NCBI GenBank assembly: GCA_044892525.1
Contig: CM097887.1
Location: 18,786,001-18,850,000 of the forward strand
Source of the DNA: Schmidtea polychroa
Lineage: Eukaryota
Direction of reading: 5' to 3'
DNA: 64,000 nucleotides
This document shows positions 4,530-36,150 of this stretch, piece after piece (the stretch's first letter is position 1; each line of letters starts with the position of its first letter). The translations under genes and the position numbers were made by a program. A model generated the notes under the pieces. That model had not been told where the DNA came from and searched no databases. It saw only the letters and a program-made list of their open reading frames with translations.

Positions 4530-4956
4530 TATTTTCCATATTAATCGAGCTCGGGTTTCCTTCATCTCTCAGGTTCTTCATTGGCTCGGGTTTCCTATTA
4601 GCTCTGGTTTTCAATTAGCCAATTAATTAATTAATTGACGATTTTCTATTATCACACATTCTAGTGCTTTTTGACCCTTTCTAAACATTTTCTGATAATT
4701 TCCTAATCACCGTCTTGTTGACCATTACTTAATCTATACCTGACCGTTTTTTCGATTAAATTTAGATAAATTTACAATTTATTGATTTTTTCGGATTTGA
4801 GGATTTTTGCCTATCGTAACTGCTTTTGCTATTTCTTAATACCGTTTCCATCATAATTTCCTTTGCCATCAATTCTATGCATGACCACAATTTTATTTGT
4901 CTTTTTCATTCGACTTACATTTTATTTAAATTTATTTTAATTTACTGAACTCATCA
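4530..4956 (-). mobile_element. Partial LTR of the family seen at 24703-25618 and 50801-51839
   Basis: Reverse complement matches the 5' half of the 50801 LTR, including (TAAT)n-TGGCTAAT and the CCCGAGC repeats. The terminus is eroded (AACTCATCA vs ACCTCAACA). Confidence 0.75.
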
Positions 4957-5056
4957 TGTTTACAATATGTCTTTAAGATATAGAATTAAGCATATTACAG
5001 AATTGGCACTTTAATTCTGTAATTCATTAGGAAATTGACCAAACATCAGTCTAAAT

Positions 5057-5415
5057 CAGTGTTTCCCAACCTTCTTTATATCATACCCCACCTTAGTATT
5101 TTCAAAAGTCATATGCCCTACCGGCTCCTTTGAAGTAGCTGTCAAAATTCGATAATCAGTATTATCAGTATGCAAGAATGACGGTGAAATTGCTGTATGC
5201 ACGTTGTTATATTTNNNNNNNNNNNNNNNNNNNNNNNNNNNNNNNNNNNNNNNNNNNNNNNNNNNNNNNNNNNNNNNNNNNNNNNNNNNNNNNNNNNNNN
5301 NNNNNNNNNNNNNNNNNNNNNNNNNNNNNNNNNNNNNNNNNNNNNNNNNNNNNNNNNNNNNNNNNNNNNATGTGCCCCACCACTGAGGCGTTATGCCACA
5401 CTGTGAGAAGCACTG
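5057..5415. mobile_element. Charlie-like hAT MITE spanning an assembly gap
   Basis: TIRs CAGTGTTTCCCA / GAGAAGCACTG, flanked by 8-bp near-identical TSD GTCTAAAT/GTCTAAAC. Confidence 0.65.
5215..5369. other. Assembly gap (N run)
   Basis: Run of N. Confidence 1.
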
Positions 5416-5972
5416 GTCTAAACGGTATTTTATTTTTGTAATGTTTATGTAACGGCTTTCTTATTGAATCATCTTATAAAAAATTAATGAAGGATTTTGA
5501 TGATATGTATCTTAAATGCAAATATAAAAATAAAATGTCATTTTTTTCGCGGAACACGAGTTGAGAACCACTGAGTTAAGATATTTACTTGGATGAATTC
5601 CAAACACGTTGTACGACTTGAATTACGTACAAACATGAACCTAACTTGTTTTGTGCGCCTGCAGATCACACTAATTATCCAATATCTTTCCTCGGCTAGG
5701 AACCTCCCTTTTTCATCTCATCTTGACATCATGTGAGTTTCATTAATTTCAGCAATCTCACCTGGTCCACCGAGTAGCTCAGTTACATCAACAGTATTCA
5801 TTCATAAGAGAAATTTGTTAATAAAGTTTCATGCTCTCTTCATCGTGTTGTACTTGCGATGATATCTATGCAATTGTTTATAGCATAGTCCTTAAATATA
5901 TTATTCGTAGGCATTTGCTTAATGGCATGCCATTTCCTTCAAAAATACCATTATCAAAAAAAGATTCTGATG

Positions 5973-6780
5973 CAGTGGCGTAGCTAGAAATTTTGGGCCC
6001 CTATGCTATGAGTCATAGATGGGCCCCCTATACTGTATACACAAGTGAAACAGGTGCGGAGCACCATAGCGCAGCAGGGGAAAAGATTTTGGCCCCCTTT
6101 GGAAGCACAATTGAATTAGACCAGGGTTTCCCAAACTTTTCCTGCGACGGAACACTTAGTATCTCTCGAAATTTTGATGGAACACCTTGTTTGTTTTGTA
6201 CGGTATGAGACCAGTGGCGTAGGCCTACCCAAGATTTTTTTAAAAGGGAAGGGAGAGTGTTAATTGAAAGAAGGGTTTATAGTTACAGAAGAGATTTGCA
6301 CCGCAGGCAAAACATTTTTAGGTCCTCTTTGCAAAGACGATTTAAATAAATAATTAGAGCTCAATATACAATATAACAGTATAAATCGTTATAAAATGAT
6401 AGTCATGTATCAGGGACAAATGTGTATAGCCGACAAGCGAAACAATTTTTTCGACTTCTATATGAATGGGCGATTTACTTAGATAACTAAATTTGCTTGC
6501 TTATACAGTTTATTATTAGCGAGGGAGAGGCAGAGGGGAATGCATAAATAGGTAAAATGCAGGTAAATAATGTACTTAATGCAATAAGTAAACAAAACAG
6601 TGGAGCTTTATTACATTAAACCACAAATCGATCATTTGGAGGTTCCTGTTGACTGGTGCCGACCGTGCCGTTGTTTGACATTGTTTTCTGAAGAAAATTA
6701 AGGAAACTTGGAAAAAAGCCCCCTTGTCTTGTGGGCCCCTATGCATTGCTTACTCTTGCTAATTGGTATCTACGCCACTG
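5973..6780. mobile_element. Non-autonomous hAT element with nested MITE fragments
   Basis: TIR CAGTGGCGTAG...CTACGCCACTG and perfect 8-bp TSD TTCTGATG (5965-5972, 6781-6788). Further TIR-like starts lie inside at about 6122 and 6212. Confidence 0.9.
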
Positions 6781-7434
6781 TTCTGATGAGCGCCAACTTT
6801 TACTACTACAGCGCCATCTATTATTTATTTAAGGGATTGAAAAAATAAGAAAAATATTTGACTTTTATATGTTTTAATGTTTTCATTTTTTTCCTTCTAA
6901 AAATCTAGGTTCTTACCTTCGGAACTTCTGGTTTGAGATATTCATAATCATTTCTGAAGTTTTCAATAATTAAATTTGAACATGTTTCTCAAAATATATT
7001 TCATATATTATTAGCTTATTATGCTTTCTCGGTAGTACTCTCGGTATACTCTCGGTATATCCCACCTCCTAATCTCCTCAGGCGTCATCTCAATAACAAA
7101 GATTTAAGAATATAAATTTAAAAATTACACCATAAAATCCTAAGATATATATAAGGATAAATGAACGCATTCTTAGTTTTGCAAATTAATATTTTGGAAC
7201 CTTAATACTTTACAAAAATATTCAAAATTAAAAATAATAGTATCATTAAACTTACTAAATCGTGCGAGCAATGAGTGGTAATAGATTCTAAATAGGTCGG
7301 AAAATATGGTTAAGTTATTGGCGCTCGGGTGAATTCCCCTCCTTATCTCTTCAGTAATGTTCTTTCGTTATAACTTTCCCTGTGAATCCATCATTAAATT
7401 TTCATTATAATTTCTGAATTTTTCTTATATATAT

Positions 7435-10064
7435 TAAGGTGACCAACTATACTCATTTACTTAGTTTTGTACTCTTTTCAAATCCTGTACTCTGAAAGTA
7501 CTCATTTGTATTTCTAAAACATTTTTTTAGATTATTTTATTTCAATTTTATAAATTAAATATTTAAAATTATTTTGACAGTGATTTGATTTATCATAGTT
7601 TAATTTTCATTTTACTTAAATAATATCAGATTATAATATTTATTTAAAATCAAAATAAAAAATATATTACTAATTATTTTATAATATAATTTTTAGATTA
7701 TTAATTCAAATATGAGCGATAACAAAAGAAGGACAAATTGTTTAAACGAAAATTTAAAAAAAGTTTCCATTCATTGTAGTTAAAAATTGAAATGATGACT
7801 CCTTGATTAAATGCACAATTTGCAATAGAGAATTTTCAAATGCAATTCATTAACGTAGTGCAATTACGGCAAACATTGAAACTAAAGTACATAAAACGTC
7901 TCATGAAACAGCAGCGTCAACATCCAAACTGACAACATTTTTTAAAGGGAATGCTTTTGGAACTAGTGAAAAAATTTGGCAGTTATGAAGGGTACTTTCG
8001 CTTTTCACACAATAATCCATAATCAAAGTTTTCGCAGCATGGACTGTACTAATAAATTATTAAAAAAATTTTGTGACGAAAAATTTACTTGTGCGCGAGT
8101 CTATCGTAACCAGCGTATTTAATGAATACTGCAAGAAAATGCTATCAGAAAATCTGGATTCTGTATCTCATATATATATATATATATATACAAATTCATA
8201 CATATGTATATATCAATATAAAGATAGAAAGTTTATAAAATATTTAATTTACTTGATAAAAAAAGCAGAACTATTTGGCGCCCGCTTCTAAATCGGCGCC
8301 CTAGGCTGCTGCCGACGTCGCCTATGCCTAAAACCGGGCCTGTATATATATATATATATAATTTTCATATATATATATAACACTGAAATAAAACTTTATC
8401 CGATTTTAGTAAGGTATTACAATATTAAGAACGGTATTCAAATTAAGATTTTAAATTTGGAATCAATCGAAGAGGAAACATCAGACATTTTGTCTAATCA
8501 CTTATTTCGAGTTATAACAGACAACAATTCGAATAAGAAAATTTGGCGCTCTCGGCTGATAACACAAATACTAATTTTGGAGGACGCACCCGTAAATAAT
8601 GTGTACACAAAATTACAAGATCTTCTGAAATGAAATATTTTGGTAATTGGTTGTAATGCTCACATTATATCAAATGCCATCAATATAGCATCAAGTTCCA
8701 TGTCAATAGATGTGGAAGTAATTATTACAAATATATATTTATATTTCAATAGGTTTACAGTACGGGTAGCAAGTTTGGAAGAATTTTGTGAAAAGGCTGG
8801 TGTTCAATACAAAAAACTGCTTGGTTATTCCAAAGTCAGATGGCTTGCTTTAACTAAAGAATTTGAACGCGTTTTGCAATTATATGATCTACTACGTTCA
8901 TATTTTTTAAGCCTTGACAAATGTCCTACCATTTTGAAGAAATTCTTTCAAAACGATATGTCGGAACCTATGCTTTATTTTATTCACAGTCAGGCGTCGT
9001 TGTTTCATAAAATTACTCTACAAATTGAAGGAGATAAAATTTCAGCAGCAGAAGTTTGTATTATATGAGGAAGTTAAAAGATTCTTAAAGATTAATAAGA
9101 AATTTGGTAAAAATTTTAAAAATATTTTTATTGAAAAATATTTTAAAAAGAAGAAATTTATCAAAGAAATATTTTAAGAAAATCTGAAATTTGTTTAAAT
9201 AACAAAAATAAGAACAGACAAGTTTTTTGAGATATCTTTTATTAAATAAAATTTTATGGAATTATTTAGTGATTCAAAAACGGATGAGAATCCTAATATA
9301 TTATATTAAACGATTTCATACTGCGATGTAAATCAAGATTTAATGATGGGTTTTTACCACTAATTCTAAAGAATAAACTGACCGTTTTTGGAAGATTCCA
9401 ATCTCAGAATAAAAAATGAATTTTTAAATGAAGTTAAAAATTTAATAAAATTTGCTATGAATATATCGAAGAATGGATAGTGAACTTTAGAGCATTTAAT
9501 TGTTTTAAATGGACCCTTCTAAATAGTAAAATTGAATGGAAAGAAGTTTCTTCGGCAGTCGAATTTGTTATGAAGGAAGTAAAAGATATTGTTATTAATG
9601 ACAATTTTCTCTTTGAAGAAATTCGAAGAGTAAATTTATATTTAAATGAAGAAAAATATAAGAACTGGAACGATGAGAAAATAGAACTTGACAAAAGATG
9701 GGTAGAAATCTTAGAGTATAAGAGATCCCACATGAATATTTAAAAGTTTTAATAGAAATTTCCTTATGTTGCCCAGGCACTAATGCTGCTGTTGAAAGGG
9801 TATTTTAACTAGGAATGATTATTGGAGCTGTGAGAAGTCGCAACTTTCTGTAAAAACATTATCTGCCGTCTTAACGGTCAAATTTAATATGCAAAATGAA
9901 AGTTGTTCGGATGTGGCTACATTATCCTCATTTAGTAAAAAAATTCACTCCGAAGAAAAATGTTTTTAAAAGAAAATAAAGTTTTTATCCTTTTTTCTTT
10001 TTTTTCACCTATGAAATAATTGCAAAGTGTACTCTGTTTGAACAAAAAATAGCTGGTCACCTTA
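7435..10064 (+). mobile_element. Blackjack-type hAT element with degenerate transposase
   Basis: TIRs TAAGGTGACCA(A/G)CTAT / ATAGCTGGTCACCTTA in TA-repeat flanks. Transposase fragments include SADNTNTNFGG, GCNAHIISNA, LLGYSKVRWLAL and PGTNAAVERVF at about 7710-9960. Confidence 0.85.
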
Positions 10065-10181
10065 TATATATATTTGGTTTTTATACTAACCCAAACAAAT
10101 TCCAATCAATTTGATTGGTGCGTTTCATTTTTGTTTTAAATGCTGTTTTCTACTTTTATTTTGTATTTTTTTATTTTCCTG

Positions 10182-10760
10182 TGTTGGGCTGAATCGAAGG
10201 GTATCCAAGAAATTAGGTTAAACATAATGAAATTAAAATAAAAATGAAACAAAAAACAAATTTAAGAATAAAATAGAATAGGATATAAGAAAAATAATAA
10301 ATTAGAAAATAAGAGTTAAAACAAAAAATATAAAAATAAGGAAAATTGAAATAGGACAATAGAATGACAAAAAATAACGTAAAATGTAGTAAATAATAAA
10401 GAAATTAAAGAAAATAAATAAAAAACACAATAAAAATAAAGAAAATAGGAAAAAATAACTCAAAAACAAGAAAAATAAATTAAAGCAATAAAATTAAGCG
10501 GCACTCAATTCTGATTGGTCCGCACACATCAAAAATTAATATATAAGGAAACACAAAAATTATAAACTTACAGTTAAACAACCAACTTTACAGGTAAGAT
10601 AAATTTTAACAGTTACAGTTAAACAACCAACTTTACAGGTACACAGCAACAACGTACGAGAATCAATCTAGAAACCAGGAGATATTATCAAACAGTTAAT
10701 AATCGACGTAAATTTCGAGTAACCATTTATTCGATTCGATACCTCCCGACTCAGCCTATA
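10182..10760. mobile_element. Possible solo LTR or TIR element
   Basis: Begins TGTTGGGCTGAATCG and ends CGACTCAGCCTATA (imperfect inverted termini). It has a purine-rich interior and an internal direct repeat TTACAGTTAAACAACCAACTTTACAGGTA twice (about 10568 and 10612). Confidence 0.4.
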
Positions 10761-10929
10761 AATCTATACAAATTACTTGGTCAGGGATTTTTCGATTTAT
10801 GCTTTTATCTAAGTAATAGTAGTCATGTAATTTTATGAAATAATTATAAATTTAACTGAAAATAGTTTCCTTTTCGTTTGATTCCTAATGATAAATTTGC
10901 TAATTAGATGATTTAGTTATTCAATAAAT

Positions 10930-12266
10930 GAATTATTATGAACTTTTTATGATTGATTTTCATGCATTATTATTTAATGATTATAAATTTCCGAGAAACG
11001 TGGCGTTGAGAAACTCCATGTCATGGTATGAGGTGCCTTCGGGAGCTCGGCCGGTGGACATGGCGTTTTTCAATCACGCAGCTGATTCGGGCCGTAATGT
11101 GGGGGCTTCCTCACGGGTCCGTCGCTGAAGATGCGACTAAAATAGGTGATCAATACTGTAGAGAGATGGTAACTATCAAGCAATGGGAAGTGTAGGCATA
11201 TGAGGAAAAATCTTGTTCGAGAGTTCGCACAGTGATTGAGGGCGTCATACTATTGTCTTTATCAAATTGAAACTGGTACTATCATCTGAAGATCTATACA
11301 GGATTCTCCGTTAAATCAGTCTGGACATCATTTGTAGCATATTATCTGCGTTCATGATTCCACTCGAAATTATTCCTGAAACCTTCAGCCTAAGGATCTT
11401 CACAACTGCTACTTTCATCATCTATATCCATCACGTGCAATCAACTTTGCTGCGTCTCTCTAAAAACCTACTTGTGGTGAATTGTGACAAACAAATAGTT
11501 CTCAAAAATAATAAACCATAAAATGATAATGAATATAGTCAGGAAAAATGTATTTATAAAAACAATCAAACATGTCATTCCCTTGTATATCGAATACCAA
11601 ACGTTTGTGGCAACTGATGCAAAGTTAGGATGGGAGGTAACTGATCCGATAGACCCTCCATGGGAATAAAATCCGAGTCTTAGAGATGTCACAGAGGATG
11701 ATGGAATATCCGCATTTCGTCGAATTGTATTTCCAGCGATAGTTAATAAATTTCCAACTCGATATAGACAGTGGGCATGTTGATGATGATAAAATCCATG
11801 AGGGGAGTAGAAATTATAGCTTGAATAGTTGACCAGTTTGTCTACGAAACGGATTACATCCAGTAATAGCGGTACGCAAAAGCTACCTATGCAAAATTTC
11901 CACGAGAGATAGAAATTCAACACGGTGTAATATAACATCTGATGATTCATGCAAGCTGCCAAATAGGATAAGAGTCTCACGAAGTGAGTACCCGCACACA
12001 TGTGTAAATGCACACATTGCAAGTTCTAATAGCCAAAATCCACATGCTGGTGCTCACCAATAATAACACGGATATCACTAGCCATAATTCTAAGAGCCTA
12101 TCTTCCAGGTGATACGTTCCTTGAGATCGCATAGTCATCTAACCCGATAGTAGATAATTCACCGCGAACGGCTAACTTGAGAAAAGTCCACCGGGTGTGT
12201 CATATAAAATCTCGGCTAATTACCGAAAGCACTAGACATGAGTGATGATAACACGAGTCACCAACA
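10930..12266 (+). mobile_element. Decayed LTR-retroelement relic ending in an LTR terminus
   Basis: GC-richer block with broken reading frames, ending ...GAGTCACCAACA like the other LTR 3' ends in the window. The 5' boundary was not identified. Confidence 0.45.
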
Positions 12267-12640
12267 ACTCAATAATTAATTTTAAAATAGTAAATAAATG
12301 TGAGATTTGAAAACAAAATTATAATAAATTATAGACAATATAATCGAAAGCCTAAATAAAATACAAACAAAATGCAACTCAATTAATCCAAGTCTATTAC
12401 TGGAACTGCAAAAATTTAATATTTTTGCTTAATGATGAATTAAAACCAACTTATCTAATTATCTATAAAATCATTATAATGATTAGTTAAATTTTCACTT
12501 AGTAGTTATTTAGTTCGGGTTGAATTTTCAATGCTATTTACCCTCTTCAAGAAAAATTTCCGTCATCAATAATTCCTCTTAAACATGTAATTTTCATTTT
12601 CTTTAACAATGATGTACAACCTTCGTTAAGTAAAGCCTAA

Positions 12641-14140
12641 TGTTGTCAGTTGATTTTCTAGTGGGTAAACACCCAGAGTACGCATAGGTTGATGACATAG
12701 GAAATCCCTCTTGATAAATAATCCGTTTTTCTTTTCCTGTAAAAATGTCTAATATTGATTAACGAATGGTGGCGAAAAGTGATGATTTTCTAAATTTGAT
12801 CTACCCATTTAGTGTTATTATTCTTCTTAGCTAGCAGACATGTTACCCACTGCAAAAACCGTCCTCAGACCCTGTTTTTCTTGTTCCGACAAGAACGCGA
12901 TAATCAAGGACCTGCAGACCCAGATCGGACGGTACAAAAAGAGGATAGACGAGTTAGAGGGGACATGGTTTAGTCCCTCCCAGATGAAAGAGACCCAAAA
13001 GAAATTACACCGAAGTGAACATTGCCGGGACGCTCTAATCTCCGAGAGTCGTGCCCAAAGAAGTTTGATCAAGGAGCAGTCCGAGGCGCTGCATAAAGTG
13101 TACATCCAGGCCGCGGCAACTAGAAGGATAGTGAAAATTCCCATCGGTGAAGCCGACAATCTCTTTCCGGCCCACCATGATACTTCTGCCAAATCGTCGC
13201 TCCCTTCGAAAAAACCTTGCCGGCCGTGCGTAGAAACGCAACTCTCGCCAGAGCAACTGGAGGTGGTTTTTGTTGGAAATAGTCGGGTACTGCCTAACGT
13301 CGCCTCTACATCGGCGGTAGCCCCAAACAATTCATCGACCAACAAGCCAAAGCGTCGGCAGCTTTCAAGGGCTGAACGCAAAAGGAAACAGCGTGAGCGA
13401 ATAGCTGCGAAGCAGCCCAAGCAACTGCCGGACCTCGGGAGTAATGTCAATAACGTCCCTGCTGTAATTGACCTAACAGCAAGAACACCTGGGCGGATCA
13501 TATCTGCCGCTGGGGTGACGTGGGAGGAAAACGCCTCCGAATTCTTCAATTTGGACGAGTTACTCGCCGACTCCGAGTGGGAAAAATGAGGATTTTCCCG
13601 TGAGATGACCTCATCCGTCGGAGAGTCCTGAATCAACTAACATCGTTTCCTGTCCTTGTGTTTTCTCTTATTCTAATTCTAATGTATAAAGTACGACGCG
13701 CCTGTATTGCAATGTTTGAAATAAACAATTTTTGTCTGTATACGGGTTTTGATTTTCGTTCATAAGGGATTTAACATTGAGTGGTAAATAGCATTGAGGT
13801 TTTTGAGATTCGAGGAGTACTGTTCAATTTGCAATCCAAACCAAGGGTACGGCGACAGGGTGACAGAATGTGTAGACGTAAGTCCTTCTATCGGCAGTCA
13901 GGGTTAGGAAGTCGGGGTCTCAGTGAGGAGTAGTCCGAAGGTGGCTCACCTGCTCACTGGCACCTCGCCATCATAGCACAGTTCCAACGTGAAGCAATTC
14001 ACGGGTGCTATGTTGGAGTATAGGTTATGTACGGGCCCTGCTCGGGGTGACACAGTAATGACAGGTATAATCGTAACGGGCGTTCATCCCCTAGGCTAGA
14101 AAGTTGAACTAAGGGTGGTCAACCGTGTAGTGCCCCAACA
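12641..14140 (+). mobile_element. 5' LTR (1500 bp)
   Basis: TGTTG...CAACA termini, TATAAA at 13685 and AATAAA at 13720. It is followed after 7 nt by the PBS. Confidence 0.85.
12840..13589 (+). CDS. Intact 249-aa ORF inside LTR U3 (CxxC, coiled coil, basic NLS-like tract, VIDLT SIM-like motif, acidic/aromatic C-terminus)
   Basis: ATG-initiated open frame upstream of the LTR TATA box. Related peptide tails occur in LTRs at 3-122 and about 29360-29517. Confidence 0.7.
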   Translation: MLPTAKTVLRPCFSCSDKNAIIKDLQTQIGRYKKRIDELEGTWFSPSQMKETQKKLHRSEHCRDALISESRAQRSLIKEQSEALHKVYIQAAATRRIVKIPIGEADNLFPAHHDTSAKSSLPSKKPCRPCVETQLSPEQLEVVFVGNSRVLPNVASTSAVAPNNSSTNKPKRRQLSRAERKRKQRERIAAKQPKQLPDLGSNVNNVPAVIDLTARTPGRIISAAGVTWEENASEFFNLDELLADSEWEK

Positions 14141-14147
14141 TAATTTT

Positions 14148-14165
14148 TGGGGGCTCAGCCGGGAT
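14148..14165 (+). promoter_or_regulatory. Primer-binding site complementary to the tRNA-Pro 3' end
   Basis: TGGGGGCTCAGCCGGGAT matches the classical tRNA-Pro PBS TGGGGGCTCGTCCGGGAT at 16 of 18 positions. Confidence 0.85.
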
Positions 14166-14471
14166 CTAGATTGAAATTTCCATTGACTAGTGCGAACTTG
14201 ACTGGGATTTATTATTGAAATTTTGTCGAATAGTGTGAATTCACCGGGATTAGTGATTTTAATTAACTGGCGAATGCAAATTGACTAATGCTTATCGAAT
14301 CTTATTAGAAAATCACGATTAGAAAATAATAAAATTAAAGATATAAATAAAGTAACTTTAATAATGGAGAAATAAGATAAAAGTAAGATAAAGTATAACG
14401 ATTTAAAAGGAAAATGTTTGATGAAACAACCACTAATTAGTTATGTATGACTAAAACATTTTTTTATAGAC

Positions 14472-14957
14472 ATGAAGGAATTCGTGGACCAGATACAACA
14501 ACTAATCAACTTCATAAACATCGAGAATGACTCCTTTAAAACGCTGACACAAAAGAGAGAAAGAATTAACATCATACTACTCCAAGCAATCGGGCAAACA
14601 CCAGTCGTCCCCAACCACATGTTATTAGCCGCAGGACTAAGTCACCCAGATGGGAAGATAAACCCTGAAACCGTGTATCAATGGTATCAAGAGAGATTGA
14701 ACCACCCAGCATTAAATCTTGATTATCAACGTATAAAAGATCCATTAAGTACCATATCAGATACAATCGAGCGAAAAATACAAGAAAAACTGACCCTACT
14801 ACGAACTTGTCTTGCTTGTAAACTTCGTCCTATTCGCGTACTGTTCTTGCCGTGTGGACACCTCAGTCACTGCGAAGAATGTGTGAACAACTTAAAACGA
14901 TGCCCGATATGTAAGCATGAGATAAAAGAAACTCATATGGTTTATTATGGTGAATGA
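14472..14957 (+). CDS. 161-aa protein with C-terminal IAP/MDM2-type C3HC4 RING finger (putative E3 ligase)
   Basis: CLACKLRPIRVLFLPCGHLSHCEECVNNLKRCPICKHEI at the C-terminus. A splice-acceptor-like TTTTTTTATAG lies just before the ATG. No BIR repeat is visible. Confidence 0.9.
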   Translation: MKEFVDQIQQLINFINIENDSFKTLTQKRERINIILLQAIGQTPVVPNHMLLAAGLSHPDGKINPETVYQWYQERLNHPALNLDYQRIKDPLSTISDTIERKIQEKLTLLRTCLACKLRPIRVLFLPCGHLSHCEECVNNLKRCPICKHEIKETHMVYYGE

Positions 14958-15519
14958 ATAGTTAAAGATACAATAACATTTATGAACATTGAATTAATAC
15001 GGGCGATTGAATGAGAATAAGTGTAATTGATGTGTGAAATTTTATTAAAGCTTCAATTTTATTTTTATGACGAATAAAATTTTGTTACGAACTGAGTAAT
15101 TTATGGCTTTTAATTCTATTTTATAATTTTTTTTGAATCAAACGAAAAGAAAATCAAACTAATGTGGAATTAGTCCCAATATAGGCTGTAAGGGTACAAA
15201 CCGAGCCACCTTCGGGCGGTACGTTCTATCATACGAAAAAAACCAATTGGGAGGGGATAACCGATCAATCTAAGTAAGAAGCGTAGGGCGGGGTACCATC
15301 GCAAATGATGAAAAGTTTCTGCGGTGTGACTGATCACCATGCCAATGTGGAAATGGATCATCGCGATCGTCGTGCGTTTTGAGCAAGGGGGGAAAGGGGA
15401 AACACTCTCAAGCGGTAAAGATCAGGTCGAAAAATTAAAAGTAGAGACAGAGAAAATGATAATTCAGGGTAAAAGAGGAAAAGAGAAGTAGAAGCATGCA
15501 GAGTGAGGAATATTAAAGC

Positions 15520-15967
15520 CGAGCTGTTGAATAGTCCAGCCGGTCAAGGAAAATGAAAACTGAGCTGTGAAAAGTCCAGCCAGTTCGGAGAGATTAAGAT
15601 CGAGTTGTTGAATAGTCCAACCGATCAGAAGGAAGAAGATTGAGCTGTTGAATAGTGCCAGCCAGTCGTAAGATCGAGTTGTTGAATAGTCCAACCGATC
15701 AGAAGGAAGAAGATTGAGCTGTTGAATAGTGCCAGCCAGTCGTAAGATCGAGTTGTTGAATAGTCCAACCGATCAGAAGGAAGAAGATTGAGCTGTTGAA
15801 TAGTGCCAGCCAGTCGTAAGATCGAGTTGTTGAATAGTCCAACCGATCAGAAGGAAGAAGATTGAGCTGTTGAATAGTGCCAGCCAGTCGTAAGATCGGG
15901 TTGTTGAATAGTCCAACCGATCAGAAGGAAGAAGATTGAGCTGTTGAATAGTGCCAGCCAGTCGTAA
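15520..15967. repeat. Tandem array of five 74-bp units (40+34-bp dimer) plus diverged leading subunits
   Basis: Units start at 15601, 15675, 15749, 15823 and 15897 and are almost identical. Both subunits share the core GAG(T/C)TGTTGAATAGT(G)CCA(A/G)CC. Confidence 0.95.
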
Positions 15968-17292
15968 AGGCCTAGAAAACCAAGAGATAGCAGTTAAGCT
16001 AAAATGAGATAATATTTAAATTAATAGTGAAATGGAATATTAAAGCTAGCTAGAAACAAATTGAATGTAATTACGAAAATTTGAGTTTAGAGAGGAAATA
16101 AACGAGCTCGTGGAAAAGATGATAGGATTATAATGAAAAAAGAAGGGGAAGAAGGAAATGAATTAAAGAGATAATGGATAATAAAGAATAGGTGAAATGA
16201 TGATAATGAGTAGAAGAGGAAAGTAACTAACTAATTAAAGGGATCCCAGTGAAGTAGAGAAACTCTACGGAATAATTTTTTTGGGTAAACCGGAAAAATG
16301 CATTTTTATTGGTTCCAGAGTAGAACCGAGTGGGATAATAGTAAATATGAAAAGTAAAATAGCGGCAACAGCGCAAAAGGAATAAGAAAACGAAGGGGGG
16401 TAATAAGCAGAGACCGACAACGACCTATTTATATTATAATTGATAGCGAATAGATAATTATTACGACTTTATAGATAATTGTTACTACCCCATATAGATA
16501 ATTTAAAATCGACGAAAAATACGGGCTGATGGGAAATTATAACCCGCGGAAAGGATTTCACAAAAGATAGGGGAAGCACAAACAGAAACCTAAAAGGTGT
16601 CTGTGTTTGAATGTTGCAGAAAGAATGATGAAGTCGTGTAAGCAGATGCAACACGAGATCATTTTTTCATTTTAGATATCAAATCAAGCCAGCCAATCAA
16701 GCCAATCCAGAACCTGCACAAAAGGAATTCGAGGAAATCGACAATCGACCAAGAATAAATCCATTCAGAACCCGCACCAAGAAACCCAGCAACCGGAAGA
16801 CTCCAGAACGGAAGAAGATACAGATAGCGACATCTCCAACTTCGAACAAATCACCGATATATTCAGCCTCATAGTATTAGCAGCCATCTGCCAAGGACTA
16901 GCAAATCTCCTCAGAATCTCAGTAGCAGATTCATACAGAATACTTTTCGAAGGAAACGCAATCAGATCCGAACTCGTCCGGTTCAGTAGCCGCTAATTAC
17001 AAAGAAGCGTAAGAAAGGAATCACGGATAAACCCAATCTTAGATCGTCAAGTAAGACAAGAGACGTATTATTTTCAGGAGACGAATTACAACAACTCAAA
17101 AGAGGACGATCTATTAAACATCAAAGAGGAATATCACAAGGAGCAAGAAGAACCAACCAAACAACCGTATTTGACCAAGAAAATCTCGAATACACCCCTA
17201 GTCGATCTCAAAGCAGAGAAAGTCTGTCCGACATCACTAATAGTTTAGCAACGTCAACCGAAGAACTATCAGCCCAAAGTTTAGTCACATCA

Positions 17293-18657
17293 TTGGATAA
17301 GTTAAAAGAAACAGACGAATCTAGAACACCAATCATGACGAATGTCGTAAAAACCGACGAGTATAAAGAAAAGTTCCGAGGAGAACCGTTCAATGGAAAT
17401 GCAAACAAGTTAGCAACGTTTATAACTAATTTTGAAGTTTATATCACGGTGTGTGGATGGATACCCGAAGCAATTAGCAAAAGGATGCCGTTGTTTTTGT
17501 GCGATAGCGCATTAGAAGTATATTTAGAAGCTAAAGAGAGAGATACGAAATTAGAGAAGTGGGAAGATATCAAAACATTCTTGAAGAAAACCTTCGGAGC
17601 CAGTAAGCCAATCAACCAGGCGTTGGGCGAACTAGCAAATAGGAAACAAAGAGCGAACGAATCGATAACATTATATGCCAGTGAATTAAGAAGATTGGCG
17701 AAGAAAGCAATGAATGGGAAATTACCCGAGGAAAATCTGATTGGCTATTTCATAGAGGGATTACGCCGAGAGGAGGTAAGAGCCTCAGTAGGTTGTCAAA
17801 TGTGCAAAACGTTAGAGGAAGCCATAGACTGGGCTACAAGATGCGAGCTCCACCTTCCAGCTCAAATGAATATTATGCAAGAGGATGGGAGGATAGCGAC
17901 AGCAATAGCGAAAGCGGATAACGGAGATAACAACAATCAGGAACCGAAAATGAATCAATTTATACCAGGAGCGCATCAAATTTTCAAACCACCACAAGGA
18001 CGATCAAATGGGAATAATGGTAATCGTAACAACTTGAATAATGAGAACAATTTTAATAATCGACGAAATATGAACGATAACAAGCAGTGCCGAACATGTG
18101 GTAAACCAGGACACTGGGACAGAGATTGTTATAGAAACGCAAATTGTAATCGTTGCGGACGGCGTGGACATACGGAAAATAGATGCCAGTTGAGAGGTTG
18201 TTTTAACTGTGGTCAGCCAGGTCACATCTCCAGAGACTGCCGAGAAAGGGACCAACCACAACGACCACCACAACGAAATACTAATTACATGTCGAATCCG
18301 CAACGACAAAGCAACCCTAGTGAAGGAAAACAAATGAACGTTATGCAGGAAATCTCACAAATGAAACAGATGATGCAACAGATGATGAGACCAAGACAAG
18401 AACCAGCACCACAACAAACCCAGAATATACGTATGATGAGGAGTACCGAAAATCTCAATAGTTATGAAGTACATCAACATGTACAAGAATGGCAAAGACT
18501 ACAGGCCGAGGAAGAGAGGATAAAACAAGAACGCAACCAACAACGACAAGAACAACCATTGCGAATAAATATGATGAAGTTAGTAAATGACATGAAAAGC
18601 CAGTACTGCTACAATTACGGGAAAAACCTAAGGGTAGTACCCATGACTGAACCATAG
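17293..18657 (+). CDS. gag: Gag: retrotransposon capsid domain plus three CCHC zinc knuckles
   Basis: PFNG...FITNFE...W...L.DSALEVY...WEDIKTFLKKTF, QRANESITLYASEL and FIEGL capsid motifs. Knuckles are CRTCGKPGHWDRDC, CNRCGRRGHTENRC and CFNCGQPGHISRDC. Confidence 0.95.
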   Translation: MDKLKETDESRTPIMTNVVKTDEYKEKFRGEPFNGNANKLATFITNFEVYITVCGWIPEAISKRMPLFLCDSALEVYLEAKERDTKLEKWEDIKTFLKKTFGASKPINQALGELANRKQRANESITLYASELRRLAKKAMNGKLPEENLIGYFIEGLRREEVRASVGCQMCKTLEEAIDWATRCELHLPAQMNIMQEDGRIATAIAKADNGDNNNQEPKMNQFIPGAHQIFKPPQGRSNGNNGNRNNLNNENNFNNRRNMNDNKQCRTCGKPGHWDRDCYRNANCNRCGRRGHTENRCQLRGCFNCGQPGHISRDCRERDQPQRPPQRNTNYMSNPQRQSNPSEGKQMNVMQEISQMKQMMQQMMRPRQEPAPQQTQNIRMMRSTENLNSYEVHQHVQEWQRLQAEEERIKQERNQQRQEQPLRINMMKLVNDMKSQYCYNYGKNLRVVPMTEP

Positions 18658-19290
18658 AAGGTAAAAGAAACGACAACGGAAATGAAAACAGAGAATTCAA
18701 CCACGATCTTAAACGGGAACCAGAGAATTCAGAAAATATTCTGGAAAAAGATAAAAGATAAAATCGAAAAAGAATATAATAAAGCGAAAACCGAGACAGA
18801 AGAGGAAAATAACAAGAGCAAGGAACAAGCCAGTCAACCAAACCGCCAAATGCTACAGGAACGGGAATCTGAGGAAACAACGATATTCGAAAATAGAAAA
18901 CTAAAGAGGGTACCTAGGATGAGAAATTTGCGAATCAACATGATGAAAAGGACAAAAGGTACGTCGTCCTCAGACGAAGACTATGTGAGCAGTTTGGGTG
19001 GAGAAATACTCGAAATCGAAGAGGAAGAAGGCGAAAGCGAAATAACCAGCGGAAGTGAAGACGAGGATATAGAAATAAAGTTGAGAAAAGAGAGGGAGGA
19101 AGCGATAAAACAAGTAGCTGAAATACTCCCAGTAGTAGTGAGGAACCAAGAGTTCATCGATATAATACCATTCAGACGATTCGTGCAAAAAGTGATGAAA
19201 TTGGGAAGAAACGAGAAAGATTTAATACCAAACGAGGAAAAATCAATTATAAAAAATTATATGGAAAAAATGAAGCAGGCCGATACCACG

Positions 19291-19512
19291 CGGTATGTAA
19301 TAAAAATCGGAACGAGTAGAGGACTTGAAAGAATGTGGATTAAAAATACAGTCACCGACGAACTTTTCGATTGGATACGAGAACATTTGGGAAGTTCGAG
19401 AAAGAAAGAATATCTGTATCAATACCAAGGAGAACAGATCAAACCAGATATGCACTTAGTGGATGCACTAATATGGCCAGGAGAAACGCAAATACTGAAG
19501 TTGCACAAAGAA
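19291..19512 (+). other. Ubiquitin/SUMO-like domain 1 in polyprotein
   Basis: RYVIKIGTSRGLERMWIKNTVTDELFDWIREHLG...YLYQYQGEQIKPDMHLVDALIWPGETQILKLH follows the beta-grasp pattern. Confidence 0.5.
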
Positions 19513-19808
19513 AAACAACCAGCAAACCTGTACGATTGGGCTAAAGATGCCAAGGCGAATATGATTTTAATATCAAATTGAAGTTAGAACAAATAAAGCA
19601 ATGTACTCTGAGACGAAACCTGGACAAGCTGATCAAACAAATTCAAGAACAAGTGGAAGACAACTGGGATTTACTCATCACCAGACGAGCCCCAGCCATG
19701 TACGAACTAATGAGCCGGTTGCGAGATACAGAATTGCTCCGAATGAGTGATTGGAGAACCATAAATTTGATCCACAAATATGGAAGGTTAAAAGAAACCC
19801 AGCCGCAG

Positions 19809-20063
19809 AGGTTGGAAATAACCATATGGTTACCGAACGAAGAGAAACGACGAATAAAAATGAGCAATCAGAGTACAGTGGATGATTTGGTATCAAAGAT
19901 AAACCAAGAAATAACGGAAAAGGTACGTAGCGAAAGTAGTGATGGTATGGTGGATGATGTAGTCATGATGTACGATAAAATAATATTACGAGCGGAAGAC
20001 GACACCTCGTTGAGCGAAATGGGTATGTGGGACGATCATCAGATAATCAGGATAGTACCAATG
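19809..20063 (+). other. Ubiquitin-like domain 2 in polyprotein
   Basis: LEITIWLPNEEKRRIKMSNQSTVDDLVSKINQEI...VVMMYDKIILRAEDDTSLSEMGMWDDHQIIRIV parallels the ubiquitin pattern TIxxVKxKI...LIFxGKxLxDxxTLxDxxI. Confidence 0.65.
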
Positions 20064-20756
20064 GATGAATTTCGAACAAGAGACGTAACGTATCAAAAAG
20101 AAATACGAGACCGGATGAAAACGTTATATCAAAAATCTACAGAAATAATTGAAATTCACCAACGATGGTTAAAAGAAAAGGAACTACGAGGAAAAATCAC
20201 GAAACTAAGCACCAGATCCTGCAGACGAACCCCGTGGGAAAGAGTGTGGGATATAGAAAATAAGGAATGGGAAATCCGGAAAGGAATCTTCGTAGAAACA
20301 GACATTGGGGAGACAGAAAGTGAATCGGAGGAAGAAGAAGAGGAACCCCCAGAATATGAAGAGGAAGCAAGGGGACAGATCTCAGATGACGAAAGCGAGA
20401 CGGATGTCACGTCAGAAAGCGAAAATGAAGCGAGACATATTCATGCAATGCGGAAAAAGGAACGTGAATATGCCGATATGGACGGCGAGGAAGCGACAGA
20501 AGCAAGAGAACGAGAAGAGAAAGAAAGATATAAACAATTAGGCGATATCTTAGCAATGGGAGCGAAAAATCAAAAACGTCAGGTAGTAGCATTGGCTAAT
20601 ATCATCTTAAAGACATCAGAAAATATCCACAATCTGAGAGAAATGGCGAAAGTAATAGAGGAATACCGGCAATATAATGAATGGTATCCAGAACAGCTAG
20701 AACAAATTATTCGAAAATGGAGAAATCAAGAGTGGGCACAAGACACCCAGGAGAGG

Positions 20757-20960
20757 TATCACATCCGAATCAAGTATCCGGACAAGAGCATTGAAGAACT
20801 AGAAGTACATCCAACAACGAAAATTAGAGAATTAAAAAAGAAATTAGCATATGAAACTCCATTCCATCTGCAACTATTCGGAAAATCACTAGACGATAAT
20901 GTAGACGTCGGAATAACACCCATGAGATTAGAAGAGACTACTGTGCTAACAGTGGCGGAA
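20757..20960 (+). other. Ubiquitin-like domain 3 in polyprotein
   Basis: YHIRIKYPDKSIEELEVHPTTKIRELKKKL...LQLFGKSLDDN aligns with ubiquitin LEVEPSDTIENVKAKI...LIFAGKQLEDG. Confidence 0.7.
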
Positions 20961-21587
20961 ACGTTGGGAAAACCGTTGAAAAGGAAAAGCAAAATTAATA
21001 AACCAACAAAAGGTAGTTTGAGTACTCCAAGTCCAAACCAAGCCCCAAGTAAATCTAATGAAACTGAAGAAGTTGAAGAGATTATCCTCGAAGATAGTGA
21101 CGACGAACCAGGAGAAAGATCACCGCTATTAGTGAGATGGCCAACAGGAGCCGAAATATGGACCAACAACCAACCATCAACAAGTTATCAACAACCAACG
21201 AAACTGAACATCAAGGAAATCGTCGACAATACTACAGAAACCGAAACGGATGAACGATTCCAGAAGCAAAGAGAACCAACAAAAATAACACCGGAAGGTC
21301 AAACTGATAAAATAATAGATGAGTGGAATGAGTGGCTGAGAAATAACGATAGCTCATTACCCAGAACAGATAACGAAAGAAATCCGAATTACGAAAATAC
21401 CAGAGAAGCTGGAACGATGATGGAAAAACGGGCAAAAGGAAGACCTAAGAAACAAAGAGAGAAATCTGAGTTCAAAACCAAGGAACAAGTAAAACAAGAA
21501 CAAGGACAAGTTCGATTGGAAAAGTTAGATAAAATAGTATGGGATCTAAAAGAAGCTCAACCAACGATCGAAAGAGGAGAAAAATGA

Positions 21588-21975
21588 ATACGAGAATTGA
21601 TCAAAGATATGTTAATAATAACAAATCCACAACTTAGACGCTTGTGGCAACGGAAAGTAGCCAGTGTAGAAGCTAGACAATTATGGCACATCGTATCGGG
21701 GATAATCCCAAAGCTAATCAAAGAAAAAACGAAAACTACCAAAACGGATTGGGATGAAACCAAGAGAGTGATTGAACAGCTCACGACAAATGCAAATGAT
21801 GACGAACATCATCTAGTAGTAATCACTTAATTGATGTATAATTTGATGGGATTAGCTGCAAGGAAAATACCTAATAAACAGTTCGCAAATCACGTAGAAA
21901 TGACCGTGTCAATCATAGAAAACACTATTGAACCCCATATTATCCGTGCCGGAGGATGGAAAAGACTTATACAAA
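21588..21975 (+). other. Bcl-2-like domain (one in-frame stop)
   Basis: BH2-like IEPHIIRAGGWKRL (cf. Bcl-xL LEPWIQENGGWDTF). Helix spacing from RVIEQL to GGW is within one residue of Bcl-xL QVVNEL...GGW. The NWGR of BH1 is not conserved. Confidence 0.65.
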
Positions 21976-22081
21976 CGCCACGAAAAAATGAGCAAGAAAG
22001 GTCGATGCAAGTTAGATTGAAAAAGCTGTTAAATGAACTAGAATGGGAACTACCGATGAAAGATCCAGCAAGCAGAAAAGC

Positions 22082-22298
22082 ATCAATAAATTCGTTAGTG
22101 ATGACTATGATGATATGGATGTTGTGCACAAGTGGAGCAACGGGTTTTACCATCTACGATTGTGATAATATGATAATGAGAGATAAATACTCATTGAGAG
22201 ATATAGAAGAATGCAGACAAGCATCACCCAACAAATTGGACATAGTAAAAACAAAAGTTACCTACCATGTATATCAAGAATCAGATTTCATCACCTGA
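22082..22298 (+). other. Signal-like hydrophobic segment and start of env-like glycoprotein
   Basis: SINSLVMTMMIWMLCTSGATG followed by FTIYDCDNMIMRDKYSLRDIEEC. This YDC...SL.D..EC pattern opens env-like ORFs of several invertebrate gypsy elements. Confidence 0.55.
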
Positions 22299-23286
22299 TT
22301 GATTTAGATATTTTCTTTTTTCGGTGATACTTTTGTTTTTTCTGTATTAAAATATTTCTTTTGCAACTGCTTGTGCGTAACAATTTATTATTTTGTTTTA
22401 TTTATGTTTAATTGGTGTTTTTATGTTGAGCGGCTTCGCATTAGCCTATTATTTATAATTACTATAAATGTAATTTTAATCAATATTTTACTCGGGTTCC
22501 CCTCGCAAGATGTCGTTCATTAGTTACATAATTCAACCCAACATATGCTTTTCAAATAATCCGTGAAGGATGGACACCGAGAGACTTATGGAGCATCATT
22601 TATCAACACTCATAAAGCTTGTTTTATGACAGATCCAATCACAAAATTTTATTCTATACTAAAAAATCTCAAAAATATTATCACATCTCTTAATTTCAAA
22701 ATACCCACAATAAAGGTTTAATTTGTTTCTAGGTCACCCCAAATTAACTCATTTAAATTGTAATAACACACTTAGTGTGACACTACAAAAACATCCATCT
22801 AAAATCGCACTAATTTCCGTATATTGTATTGTCCATTTAACATTTCTGAATCATTAAACAAATATTACAATGCCACATTGTAGTGGTTAGAAATTTGCTT
22901 GCCAAACATATTTATGATGGAAAATTTCACCACAAATGTTTTCTTATAATGATCTGATTTCAACACATTAACATTTCAATATAGGCTAAGCATTTGATAA
23001 TTTAAAAAAAATCTTTAATTGGAATGTTAAAACAAAGTCGAAATAAATGAAATTAACTACGTAATGACATTAATAAATATTTAATATTTCTATTTTTAAA
23101 ATAATGCAATTTGTAAATTTAAAATTGTATTTACCAAAACTGTTTGCTACATAAACCGCCAAAAATTTTAAATAATTTTTAAACAAATTTTGATTTCATT
23201 GTTAACAGTATAATTAATCATCCAAATAAAATTTAAAATAGCACCATAAAATAAAACTTTATTTTATTAAATAACACATTTTATCA

Positions 23287-23849
23287 TTACTCCTTAAGCG
23301 TAAGCTTATCATATAAGTAGGTTCCAACTCCTGGTCCGTTTCGACGAATATTTGTTAGATGATCAGCTATTTCTTTCATTGAATCTACTTGTTCTTCCAA
23401 AAAGTCTTCCAGGTAATCAGTCATTTGTGGATCATTGTGTGTCTCAGCTATTTTGTGCAAATTAAGCAATGACTAATACAAATTGCTCATTAAGTAAAAA
23501 ACTATAAGTGATTTTGAAGTCATACTTGATTAACTTCTTTTTCAAGAGTTAGCGCAGTCTCAAAAGCTGTTTCCGGAGTCCATTCAACAATTGAAGGTTT
23601 GGCAATATCTTTAAAAACAATTCTACCACCTCGTTTATTTTGGTATTTCATCAAATTTTCAGCATGTTCTCTTTCTTCTAGTGATTGTTTGTGAAAAAAA
23701 TGACTAAAACCTTGAAGAGCCACATCATCTCGATTAAAATAAAAACTCATAGCTTGGTACACATAACTTGCATGAAGTTCTTTGTTAATTTGTTCATTAA
23801 TACCTAGTTCAGATTCAGAGTGAAAATTCTGTCGCACTTGAGAATTCAT
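23287..23849 (-). CDS. FTH: Cytosolic H-type ferritin, 169 aa, two exons (23526-23849, 23287-23472)
   Basis: Ferroxidase residues are present (KELHASY, EEREH, LEKEVNQ, LEEQ). A 53-nt GT..AG intron at 23473-23525 joins NQ|SLLNLH in frame. No signal peptide. Confidence 0.97.
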
Positions 23850-24702
23850 GATTTATGAAATTACTTAAATTTCAACTTACAGTTGCTTAAATACTTTGTG
23901 TGTGTGTCTAAGTACTGTATGTGTGCAATGAATGTGATTGCATAATTTTCTCACACACACTTACAAAAAATCACATTGCACGTATGTAACTTAAATTTAT
24001 AAATTCTATTTGTAAAATTTAAATTTTAAGATTTTGTATTTTATTTATTTGAATTTTTTAATATCCAAATTAATGTTAACATTTTTCTAATTTATTTGAG
24101 AGAATTTGACTTAAGTAAAGCTGAAGTTGCAAAATATTAAAAATATCAAAAATATTTTATATCGGCCGAAATTATAAAAAAAATAGTCGTGAATAAATGA
24201 AAATTTATATAGCAATTATGTAATTTAAACAATACAATTTTGAAAATATTTAATATTTTTTGATTAATTTTTATAATTAGAATTTCATTATTTAATTTTG
24301 TAAGTCGTTTTTACAAATTGTAGTTGTTATGTTTACGAGAATAATCCTAGCAGTTATTTCTTTGTATACTTCAGGTCGTCCTTCGGGTATCATTCTGAAC
24401 TCTAGTTATCCTATATCACACACTATGGTAATTTATGAAACCTTATCAAGTGGTTCAATAATGTATGTGTTACTTTTCGAATGCACATCTGAACTCCATT
24501 TCAAATTTGTATGAGATTTGACCGTGTCAATTTTTCGAATAAAAGTCATTTACAAAAAGAGTTACTGTGCAATTTGTCTAGAATTCGAAATGGAAAATAA
24601 GTCAATTAAGAAAGTATTGCGTGTCTAAAAGTGTCAGAAACAGAAAAATTAGAAATATTTTGCTTTTCAATAAAATTAATTTTAAATTCTTATAAATACA
24701 TT

Positions 24703-25618
24703 TGTTGAGGTTTTGAAATTGAATGGCGGTCAAGCAGGGAAGCAATGGCAAAGAAAGATATGATAAAAACATAACTATAAAAGGGTACAATCAGACATGA
24801 AATGGAAAAATGCTCAAACCTGAGGAAGTGGAATAAAATGAAAAGTTATCGAAATTGAAGCTGGAAAATGGGAGAGGGGTAGATTAGTGTATGGTGAAGA
24901 AGACAGTGATCAAGAAATTGCTAGAAAATGTTTAGAAGGGGTCGTAAAACAGGCAGATAAAAAACCCAAAATATTAATTAATTAATTAATTGGCTAATGG
25001 AAAACCCGAGCTAATGGGAAGCCCGAGCCAATGGAAAAGCCGAGCGCGGCAATTTGGGAGGATAAACAAATGGGGAAGTCAGAGAGCAATTATCCAAACA
25101 GCCGGATAAACGAGGGTAAACAAAAGAAGGGGAATCAGGAAGAGGGTCAACAGAAATAGCTAATTAGGGAATGATAACTAAGGAAGTCAAAACCAATTAG
25201 GTCAAAAATAGGGCAATTACAACGATTATGGGAATATATAAGGAAACTCCAAATTCACATAATTGGCAATAGCCTTAGGTAGGGAAGAAGAAACCGACAT
25301 TAGAAGTTAAAGGAATAGAATAAAAGAAGAAAAAGAATTATAGGAAAAACTGAAGAGTTAGACAAGGAGCGTTAAAAAAGATTGGATCAGAGAGTGGAAC
25401 TAAATCAAAAAGTGAAACTTAATTTTTTAATCGTACAAGGTTGAGACCTTCCAGAGCAGAGTCCGATCTGAAATTGTGTGAGAATCAGCTGTGTAATTAA
25501 TTGTGAGAGTTAAAAATTTTTATAAAACAAATATACGTTGGGAGTTTGTGTTTATTGATTTTGGAACACGTGGAGTCAGAGTAACCAACGGTTGATTTTG
25601 ATATCATAAAACCCAACA
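24703..25618 (+). mobile_element. Solo LTR (916 bp)
   Basis: TGTTGAGG...ACCCAACA termini and perfect 4-bp TSD CATT. Homologous to 50801-51839. Confidence 0.92.
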
Positions 25619-36000: not shown

Positions 36001-36150
36001 AAAGCGCATGAGCACGGAATAAAAATCGGAGACTCAATATATTTGAATAGACCGGAACCAGTAAAAGGCCTATCAACAAAATTACAAAGACCATTTAAGG
36101 GTCCATACACAGTGTGTGATGTTACAGCAACTAATTAAAAGTTACGTCCA
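33030..36150 (+). pseudogene. pol: Degenerate Ty3/gypsy pol (PR-RT-RH-IN) with gag tail
   Basis: Protease ALLDSGSS; RT VIDLNKGY, LPFGLTGAPATF, YIDDII; RNase H TDAS, AYASRSL; integrase H..LGGH..CxxC, MDIIGP, TDQG.NF, SPYHPQTNGLVERFN; GPY motif. There are many stops and frameshifts, and the RT N-terminus is deleted. No LTRs were found. Confidence 0.95.

Follow-up and report, generated by a model that had tools for sequence, protein, structure and literature searches.

Can the long terminal repeat (LTR) of a retrotransposon harbour a complete protein-coding gene, and what would the product of such a gene do for the element that carries it? The question is raised by a stretch of 64,000 nucleotides from Schmidtea polychroa (GenBank assembly GCA_044892525.1, contig CM097887.1, positions 18,786,001 to 18,850,000 of the forward strand; the whole stretch is called the window here, and all coordinates refer to it), where an open reading frame (ORF) for a protein of 249 residues, P0001, lies upstream of the gag gene of a decayed gypsy retroelement that resembles the giant Burro elements. 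An initial annotation had placed this ORF in the U3 region of an LTR, had read its product as a possible transactivator or silencing suppressor, and had suggested that every solo LTR would scatter a copy. Here I argue from sequence comparison that P0001 is a genuine member of a conserved protein-coding family, that its gene is very probably located in the LTR and dispersed along with solo LTRs, and that a positive regulator acting in the nucleus is the leading, still tentative, reading of what it encodes.

The open reading frame and its relatives

At the local composition, 249 open codons would arise by chance with a probability of 2.5e-6, or about 0.001 times per 4 kb in six frames. The intactness of the ORF in this single copy is little proof, because the polyprotein downstream of it in the same element has four breaks in about 5 kb; by my own estimate, a 750-nt stretch in this element copy would stay open by chance in about half of cases. 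Evidence of another kind comes from other proteins. A full phmmer search of 1.84 billion representative proteins with P0001 returned 11 matches, 9 of which are true relatives (E 5e-8 to 1e-3), and two further searches, the last of which scored the top 8000 candidates, added 10 more, giving 19 in total (numbered P0004 to P0022). The other two matches, P0002 and P0003, are TPR-repeat proteins that match the low-complexity part and are excluded from all counts, while a candidate from prokaryotic genomes (L001) fails the family profile (best E 0.89) and is put down to chance. A profile built from nine relatives without the query recovers P0001 with E=1.6e-22 among 1912 six-frame pieces of the window, and finds no further copy among them.

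The relatives fall into two broad groups, one of them called group B below, with P0001 as a third lineage, and core identity between P0001 and its relatives ranges from 17 to 38% (17 of the 19 could be aligned; P0018 and P0019 lack the anchor). A Trp hinge and a Pro-His motif stand 66 residues apart in P0001 and in 11 of the 19 relatives (in two the distance is shorter and six have no match), and this identical spacing holds despite core identities of 23-35%. Furthermore, the mismatches are more conservative than neutral ones, with mean BLOSUM scores of -0.08 to -0.56 in four pairs compared with -0.82 to -0.97 (standard deviation about 0.21) in a neutral simulation on random DNA. Spacing and mismatches together are protein-level evidence of constraint, distinct from the ratio of nonsynonymous to synonymous substitution rates (dN/dS). 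The 19 relatives share the protein core, in support of a conserved protein-coding gene. A chance open frame, or a relic without function, is a barely credible account of the ORF and one largely refuted for the family, given the length of the frame, the 19 relatives, their indel-free spacing and their conservative changes; what speaks for it is that no named family matches, that the element copy is decayed, and that three-way identity is close to the expectation under a uniform rate (22 versus 20.8, and 19 versus 17.7), so that this conservation test is neutral. This particular copy may be silent even so.

Searches with P0001 itself were largely empty: a word-index search yielded none among 817 candidates, an exact look-up gave nothing, Pfam and NCBIfam returned sub-threshold coiled-coil matches and no named family, the family profile found no match among PDB sequences, the best score in an atlas search was 0.81 (a lead only), Foldseek of the P0001 model against viral and PDB sets gave nothing at E<=0.001, tblastn against phages found no match, and VIA-align of the model retrieved generic coiled coils only, with Z up to 5.9. 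The predicted structure has long helices at residues 15-40 and 46-98 (predicted local distance difference test, pLDDT, 81-98) and a predicted helix over the basic tract at residues 177-190, with the rest of the model at low confidence, and the core (residues 15-113) is probably a coiled coil.

Most of the features first annotated from the letters were borne out. The frame is uninterrupted, no TATAAA or AATAAA other than the two boxes downstream of it occurs from the ORF start to 14140, the modelled helices agree with the proposed coiled coil, and the basic tract (net charge +9 over residues 171-192), the VIDLT resembling a SUMO-interacting motif (SIM) and the acidic tail (-7 over residues 227-249) are all present. 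The CxxC that had been listed among them does exist (residues 12-15, with a second one at 127-130); as a functional feature it did not hold up, since neither is kept in the nine relatives aligned, so that conserved Cys ligands of a zinc finger are lacking and the motif is specific to this lineage.

Several relatives keep the Arg-rich tract, the SIM-like motif and the Trp-acidic tail in the same order. The Arg-rich tract is found in both groups, 97-131 residues past the hinge. A strict SIM-type pattern, which I take to describe the PIAS kind, occurs in three of ten sequences tested, always 164-168 residues past the hinge, with a shuffle p of 0.002-0.008 for each of them; six of the ten have a looser pattern, which was drawn up once the data had been viewed. 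In P0001 the motif agrees with a PIAS-type SIM as a sequence feature and falls in a region of low pLDDT. Similarly, a Trp followed by acidic residues stands 187 residues past the hinge in P0001, P0007 and P0016, a tail conserved in the one group with a visible natural C-terminus. A leucine-rich export signal, by the pattern that I presume to define one, is not conserved, being found in three of six sequences at differing offsets and in none of the three group-B sequences.

As a side observation, the frame antisense to the ORF (12827-13636, minus strand) is also open over 269 codons with no stop; shuffling the codon order leaves it free of stops in 0.95% of trials, it has no Pfam match, and it may be due to chance or represent an antisense gene.

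The long terminal repeat and its host element

Where does the LTR begin and end? The terminal inverted repeat (TIR) TGTTGGG/CCCAACA at 10182/14140 is, with 7 nt, the longest inverted match among 129 TGT sites in 5000-13800 (the second-longest, 6 nt, is at 13271), and it provides the TG...CA termini with a short inverted repeat that are expected of an LTR, of modest significance alone: I estimate a chance of about 8% for a 7-nt match somewhere in 10064-12840. AT skew switches at 10182 from -0.51 to +0.48, and a TIR-bounded element ends near 10064, to the left of the proposed LTR. The 18-mer just past the right end resembles a primer-binding site (PBS), perhaps of the tRNA-Pro type; the window contains no tRNA gene. 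Elsewhere in the window, a pair of homologous repeats (24703-25618 and 50801-51839; 73% identity over 309 nt) has TGTTG...CCCAACA ends and 4-bp target-site duplications (TSDs), the same style of terminus; a permissive scan for solo LTRs in the window gave 21 candidates, of which this homologous pair alone is relied on. With one LTR only in the window, it is on the 7-nt TIR, the PBS and the composition switch that the limits 10182-14140 are placed, and an LTR of this extent with the ORF inside it is very likely. The other candidate starts, at 13271, 12641 and 11778, were set aside because they have shorter inverted repeats and no purine tract.

It is highly improbable that the gene is real and lies outside the LTR, as a 3'-internal accessory ORF of an upstream tandem element that shares a short LTR, or in a separate element inserted in front of such an LTR. 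The single LTR in the window (neither a repeat finder nor self-BLAST found a second copy), the 6-nt candidate start at 13271 and the appreciable chance of a 7-nt match would suit such a placement, as would the usual location of extra ORFs between pol and the 3' LTR (PMC7264820). No polypurine tract precedes any candidate LTR start (purine fraction 0.2-0.6), a point against any tandem element with a shared short LTR; in addition, remains of integrase or env were not seen upstream of the ORF, the skew switch sits at 10182 and, as set out next, no relative is fused to a retroelement domain.

Seventeen of the 19 relatives are gene models in which the sequence is fused to a cellular domain, a different one in each: subtilase, SNF transporter, glycine cleavage P, actin, CRAL-TRIO, tyrosine phosphatase, L21, DAD, ABC, Sybindin, MCM, ferrochelatase, ankyrin, peptidase M1, LSM14, Sec62 and an ion channel. 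The other two have no domain at all, and gag, reverse transcriptase, integrase or env was found in 0 of 19 (domain thresholds 0.01 and 0.001). In P0004, P0009 and P0015 the junction with unrelated upstream sequence falls four residues ahead of the Met. Cellular fusions, the lack of retroelement domains and an acceptor before the ATG therefore point to small intronic units, i.e., solo LTRs, and the simplest reading is that solo LTRs in introns have been taken up as exons by gene predictors. The scattering by solo LTRs that the initial annotation had foreseen gains support from these solo-LTR-like units, as does its placement of the ORF in an LTR from the TIR, the PBS-like 18-mer and the skew switch. 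A practical consequence would be that gene predictors absorb the ORF as a false exon; the public predicted proteins P0004-P0022 include it spuriously as an exon in models of many housekeeping genes, an artefact of annotation that deserves to be flagged.

Within the LTR, the ORF most likely lies in U3, provided that the TATA box at 13685 drives the genomic RNA; use of the one at 10540, weak on its own among nine TATA-like sites in 10182-17400, would give a long R. Of the 224 YAG sites in 10182-17400, the three directly before the ORF rank 1, 2 and 7 by a crude pyrimidine score, and the ORF is probably translated from a spliced mRNA that uses an acceptor just before the ATG and the poly(A) signal of the LTR. 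The antisense frame listed in the table, taken up to the upstream ATG (11468-12085, minus strand), has Cys/His clusters and one internal stop, the open part (11468-12025) finds no Pfam family and no atlas match, and the whole is possibly a second LTR-borne gene.

The element itself appears to be a decayed, 3'-truncated, Burro-like gypsy retroelement, whose membership in Burro cannot be fixed without pol. Burro/GYPSM1 elements, giant gypsy-like LTR retrotransposons found in dugesiid planarians, have their env in the same frame as gag and pol and between the two, with ubiquitin-like and BCL2-like domains ahead of it; their accessory domains are mainly concerned with ubiquitin/SUMO and with apoptosis (PMC6431247). 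The present element is like them in a gag with three CCHC knuckles that opens a giant ORF (Burro has two or three), in an upstream accessory ORF, in tandem repeats and in a proposed LTR of several kilobases; its gag-fused ORF may also continue, as theirs does, through a ubiquitin-like stretch into an env-like mononegaviral fusion protein set before pol. The ubiquitin-like stretch (Pfam ubiquitin, E=0.041) and the env-like start (Monjiviricetes_fusion, E=0.0045, at the expected place, with about 65 residues left) are both below the cut-off, and the continuation is broken by three in-frame stops and a change of frame before it ends near 22295. Unlike Burro, this copy has no pol and no 3' LTR, and a Bcl-2-like helical stretch, seen by eye, was not confirmed by Pfam or PDB sequences (its single-sequence model has a pLDDT of 44.7 and the fold search was uninformative); the likeness is one of description. 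The excerpted account of Burro in PMC6431247 names no gene in the LTR. The motif LRINMM occurs at least twice after gag (18541-18960, plus strand), with variants nearby, and may mark polyprotein cleavage sites.

The RING ORF in the leader has its own acceptor in the same AG/AC ATG context (rank 38 of 224) and an AATAAA at 15073. This cassette (14472-15078, plus strand) has the same layout as that of the LTR ORF, and spliced-leader (SL) trans-splicing at both acceptors would be a possible alternative to cis-splicing.

Table 1. Features of the LTR, the ORF for P0001 and the element downstream (window coordinates; a slash marks a splice junction)
Feature	Position	Strand	Description
Proposed 5' LTR	10182-14140	+	about 3.96 kb, TGTTGGG...CCCAACA
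Candidate upstream LTR promoter	10514-10599	+	CCAAT-type box 10514, TATA 10540, donor CAG/GTAAGA 10594; motifs only
Antisense open frame	11468-12025	-	185 codons, hydrophobic C-terminus, in LTR; one stop before upstream ATG 12085
Pyrimidine tract and AG acceptors	12810-12837	+	directly 5' of ATG (AG/AC ATG)
ORF of P0001	12840-13589	+	249 residues, ATG to TGA, no internal stop
Conserved core	12882-13178	+	residues 15-113; two long helices, Trp/Pro hinge, terminal Pro-His motif
Arg/Lys-rich helix	13350-13409	+	residues 171-190; candidate nuclear localisation signal and/or nucleic-acid-binding motif
SIM-like VIDLT	13464-13478	+	residues 209-213
Trp-acidic-hydrophobic tail	13521-13586	+	residues 228-249, net charge -7
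TATAAA 13685, AATAAA 13720	13685-13725	+	likely main promoter and poly(A) signal, very short R; putative roles
Consensus donor GTAAGT	13878-13883	+	putative U5/leader; motif-based candidate
PBS-like 18-mer starting TGG	14148-14165	+	7 nt past LTR end, gag downstream
RING ORF	14472-14957	+	161 residues, C-terminal RING finger, Pfam zf-C3HC4_3 E=1.3e-12; second accessory ORF
74-bp tandem repeat array	15512-15967	+	in leader
gag	17336-18657	+	Pfam Retrotrans_gag 2.2e-10, zf-CCHC 1.3e-10; three CCHC knuckles read directly
Broken continuation of long ORF	18658-22298	+	ubiquitin-like stretch, helical stretch, env-like start

Possible roles of the protein

A layout with a basic and an acidic part is typical of nuclear regulators, and Tas of foamy viruses, Tax and HBZ of human T-cell leukaemia virus and Tat and Rev of human immunodeficiency virus are small nuclear proteins that combine an Arg-rich motif with an effector tail of acidic or hydrophobic character. 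P0001 recalls such transactivators and export factors in its Arg-rich motif and acidic tail, and the possible two-promoter layout recalls Tas. Homology to them was not detected in Pfam, in the viral and PDB sets of Foldseek or with the profile on PDB sequences, and unlike this ORF their genes lie mostly outside the LTR. In its position, a whole accessory gene overlapping U3 that makes the LTR unusually long, a layout seen in some true retroviruses, the ORF is closer to sag of mouse mammary tumour virus (MMTV), which is expressed from alternative transcripts (PMC9147501); Sag, however, belongs to a vertebrate retrovirus and is a type II membrane superantigen, with no link in sequence or fold, and the MMTV LTR measures 1.3 kb compared with about 4 kb here (PMC9147501). 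The CERV protein of the Caenorhabditis elegans element Cer1 (517 residues, nuclear, translated from a spliced mRNA and equipped with coiled-coil helices and a basic nuclear localisation signal) is likewise an accessory protein of an LTR retrotransposon and resembles P0001, by description, in its coiled-coil helices, its basic tract and the predicted spliced mRNA; it differs in sharing exons with gag and in having two globular domains, M and G; the excerpted text does not describe it as LTR-encoded (PMC10309623). Additional ORFs of plant and rotifer elements (Grande gene23, Retand; bdelloid ORF3s) occupy the internal region, for the most part between pol and the 3' LTR (PMC7264820, PMC5408684), and VANC is an element-specific anti-silencer (PMC6719617). 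Like the present gene, these are family-wide transposon accessory genes, some nuclear and some with their own promoter, but the retrotransposon examples are internal and VANC comes from DNA transposons. By analogy, the known precedents would be MMTV sag for the position, and Tas, Tat and Rev or CERV for the likely role. Full-text searches on LTR-embedded ORFs in retrotransposons or on Burro turned up no report of this gene, nor does the excerpted text of PMC11410931 add a report of an LTR-embedded gene; the original description of Burro may already draw the ORF.

The reading that I favour, if tentatively, is an LTR-borne accessory gene for a positive regulator in the nucleus, either a transactivator or an anti-silencer. 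It is the most likely role because the SIM-like and acidic-aromatic motifs are conserved and the export signal is not. The context is the derepression of Burro1 upon loss of a nuclear PIWI, a sign of PIWI-linked silencing (PMC8532177), and the ubiquitin and apoptosis cargo of Burro (PMC6431247). The mRNA would be made by one of two routes, either from the main promoter with donor 13878 joined to the acceptor in the 3' LTR copy, or, within any LTR, from the internal TATA at 10540 with donor 10594. The protein would oligomerise through its coiled coil and enter the nucleus, where the Arg-rich helix would bind element DNA or nascent RNA, and the SIM-like motif and acidic-aromatic tail would recruit activators or counter SUMO-linked silencing; the outcome would be a positive-feedback switch, like that of foamy-virus Tas or lentiviral Tat.

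Several observations weigh against this reading. The Arg-rich tract moves by up to 34 residues between the groups, the SIM-like motif is missing in four of ten sequences (P0009, P0015, P0017 and P0018, some of them truncated or host-switched), and the motif patterns were picked after the sequences had been viewed. No DNA-binding domain was recognised in the Pfam, NCBIfam or PDB-sequence searches, and the tract of P0004, one of nine relatives scanned, weakly matches Pfam REV (E=0.0013, below the cut-off). The relatives are predicted gene models, a set selected for open frames, and the partner in P0018 is an ankyrin protein, a domain that Burro also carries; to these are added the missing second LTR copy and the neutral three-way identities given above.

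The REV match leads to the main rival, which the initial annotation had omitted and which I count as serious, if unlikely: the same gene in the same place might encode a post-transcriptional factor like Rev, Rem or CERV, which would multimerise on the element RNA through its Arg-rich helix and let the very long genomic RNA, with its introns and poly(A) signals, escape splicing, premature 3' ends or nuclear retention. There would indeed be obstacles to bypass in the leader (a donor at 13878, acceptors at 14469 and 16675 and an AATAAA at 15073), the model combines an Arg-rich helix with helices of the oligomer type, and CERV of Cer1 provides a precedent in a gypsy-type element (PMC10309623). Against export stand the lack of a conserved leucine-rich signal, a REV match that is probably compositional, and SIM-like and acidic motifs that suit chromatin or transcription better; furthermore, the one stretch folded, 13710-14170, gave no signal of structured RNA (z=0.45), and Rfam had no match of note over 10100-17400.

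It is distinctly unlikely that an LTR-borne accessory protein does another job altogether, be it host manipulation together with the RING and Bcl-2-like products (for instance in survival, or SUMO/ubiquitin turnover), negative regulation of copy number or a part in the particle. The neighbouring RING ORF and the apoptosis and ubiquitin cargo of Burro (PMC6431247) would fit, and short motifs leave the direction of the effect unfixed; P0001, for its part, has no evident transmembrane segment or signal peptide, and its basic-plus-acidic layout fits nuclear regulators.

What would follow from the favoured positive regulator? Solo LTRs are usually seen as non-coding promoter relics, and each would instead be a potential trans-acting expression cassette. 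The gene would be a testable candidate for self-activation, or for export of long RNA, by a giant env-bearing retroelement in cells guarded by PIWI, and a genome organisation in the style of complex retroviruses would extend to gypsy elements. A further extension, quite improbable as a whole, is that each LTR, solo ones included, is a self-contained gene (TATA 10540, intron 10594-12837, ORF and poly(A) signal 13720), so that intronic solo LTRs would outlive their parent and go on making a SUMO-reading nuclear protein that relieves SUMO/PIWI-linked silencing of its family; it might form a split SUMO-targeted ligase with the RING protein, in which it would be the half that targets the substrate. 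Animal LTR retrotransposons would then have a system against silencing that solo LTRs disperse.

Other sequences in the window

Two relics are of interest beside the main LTR, and neither has DNA similarity to its 3' part. The first (1 to about 577, plus strand) is LTR-like and cut by the window edge, with an ORF end at 3-122, an ATTAAA at 240 and a tail whose last letters are ACA; among 1894 pieces compared with the basic segment of P0001, its segment 3-119 scores highest (50, next 42; shuffle p=0.001), and it does not match the tracts of four relatives (p 0.15-0.72) or the family profile. The second (29135-29898, plus strand) is a candidate solo LTR of 764 bp with a 4-bp TSD, a decayed ORF with an acidic-hydrophobic tail and an ATTAAA at 29600; its segment 29319-29516 scores 30 against the P0001 tail, where the next piece scores 29, and is not significant.

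The repeats at 24703-25618 and 50801-51839 (both plus strand) form, together with one at about 4548-4932 (minus strand), a family of solo LTRs of about 1 kb with 4-bp TSDs, and the copy at 50.8 kb interrupts a transposase-like sequence on the minus strand. Directly left of the main LTR, the TIR element (about 7434-10064) contains decayed transposase-like frames. About 1 kb past the point where the Burro-like element is truncated lies a host ferritin gene (about 23250-23852, minus strand; Pfam Ferritin E=3.5e-25), apparently with one intron, and at about 33300-36300 (plus strand) there is a separate, heavily decayed gypsy-type pol in which motifs of protease, reverse transcriptase, RNase H and integrase can be recognised by eye.

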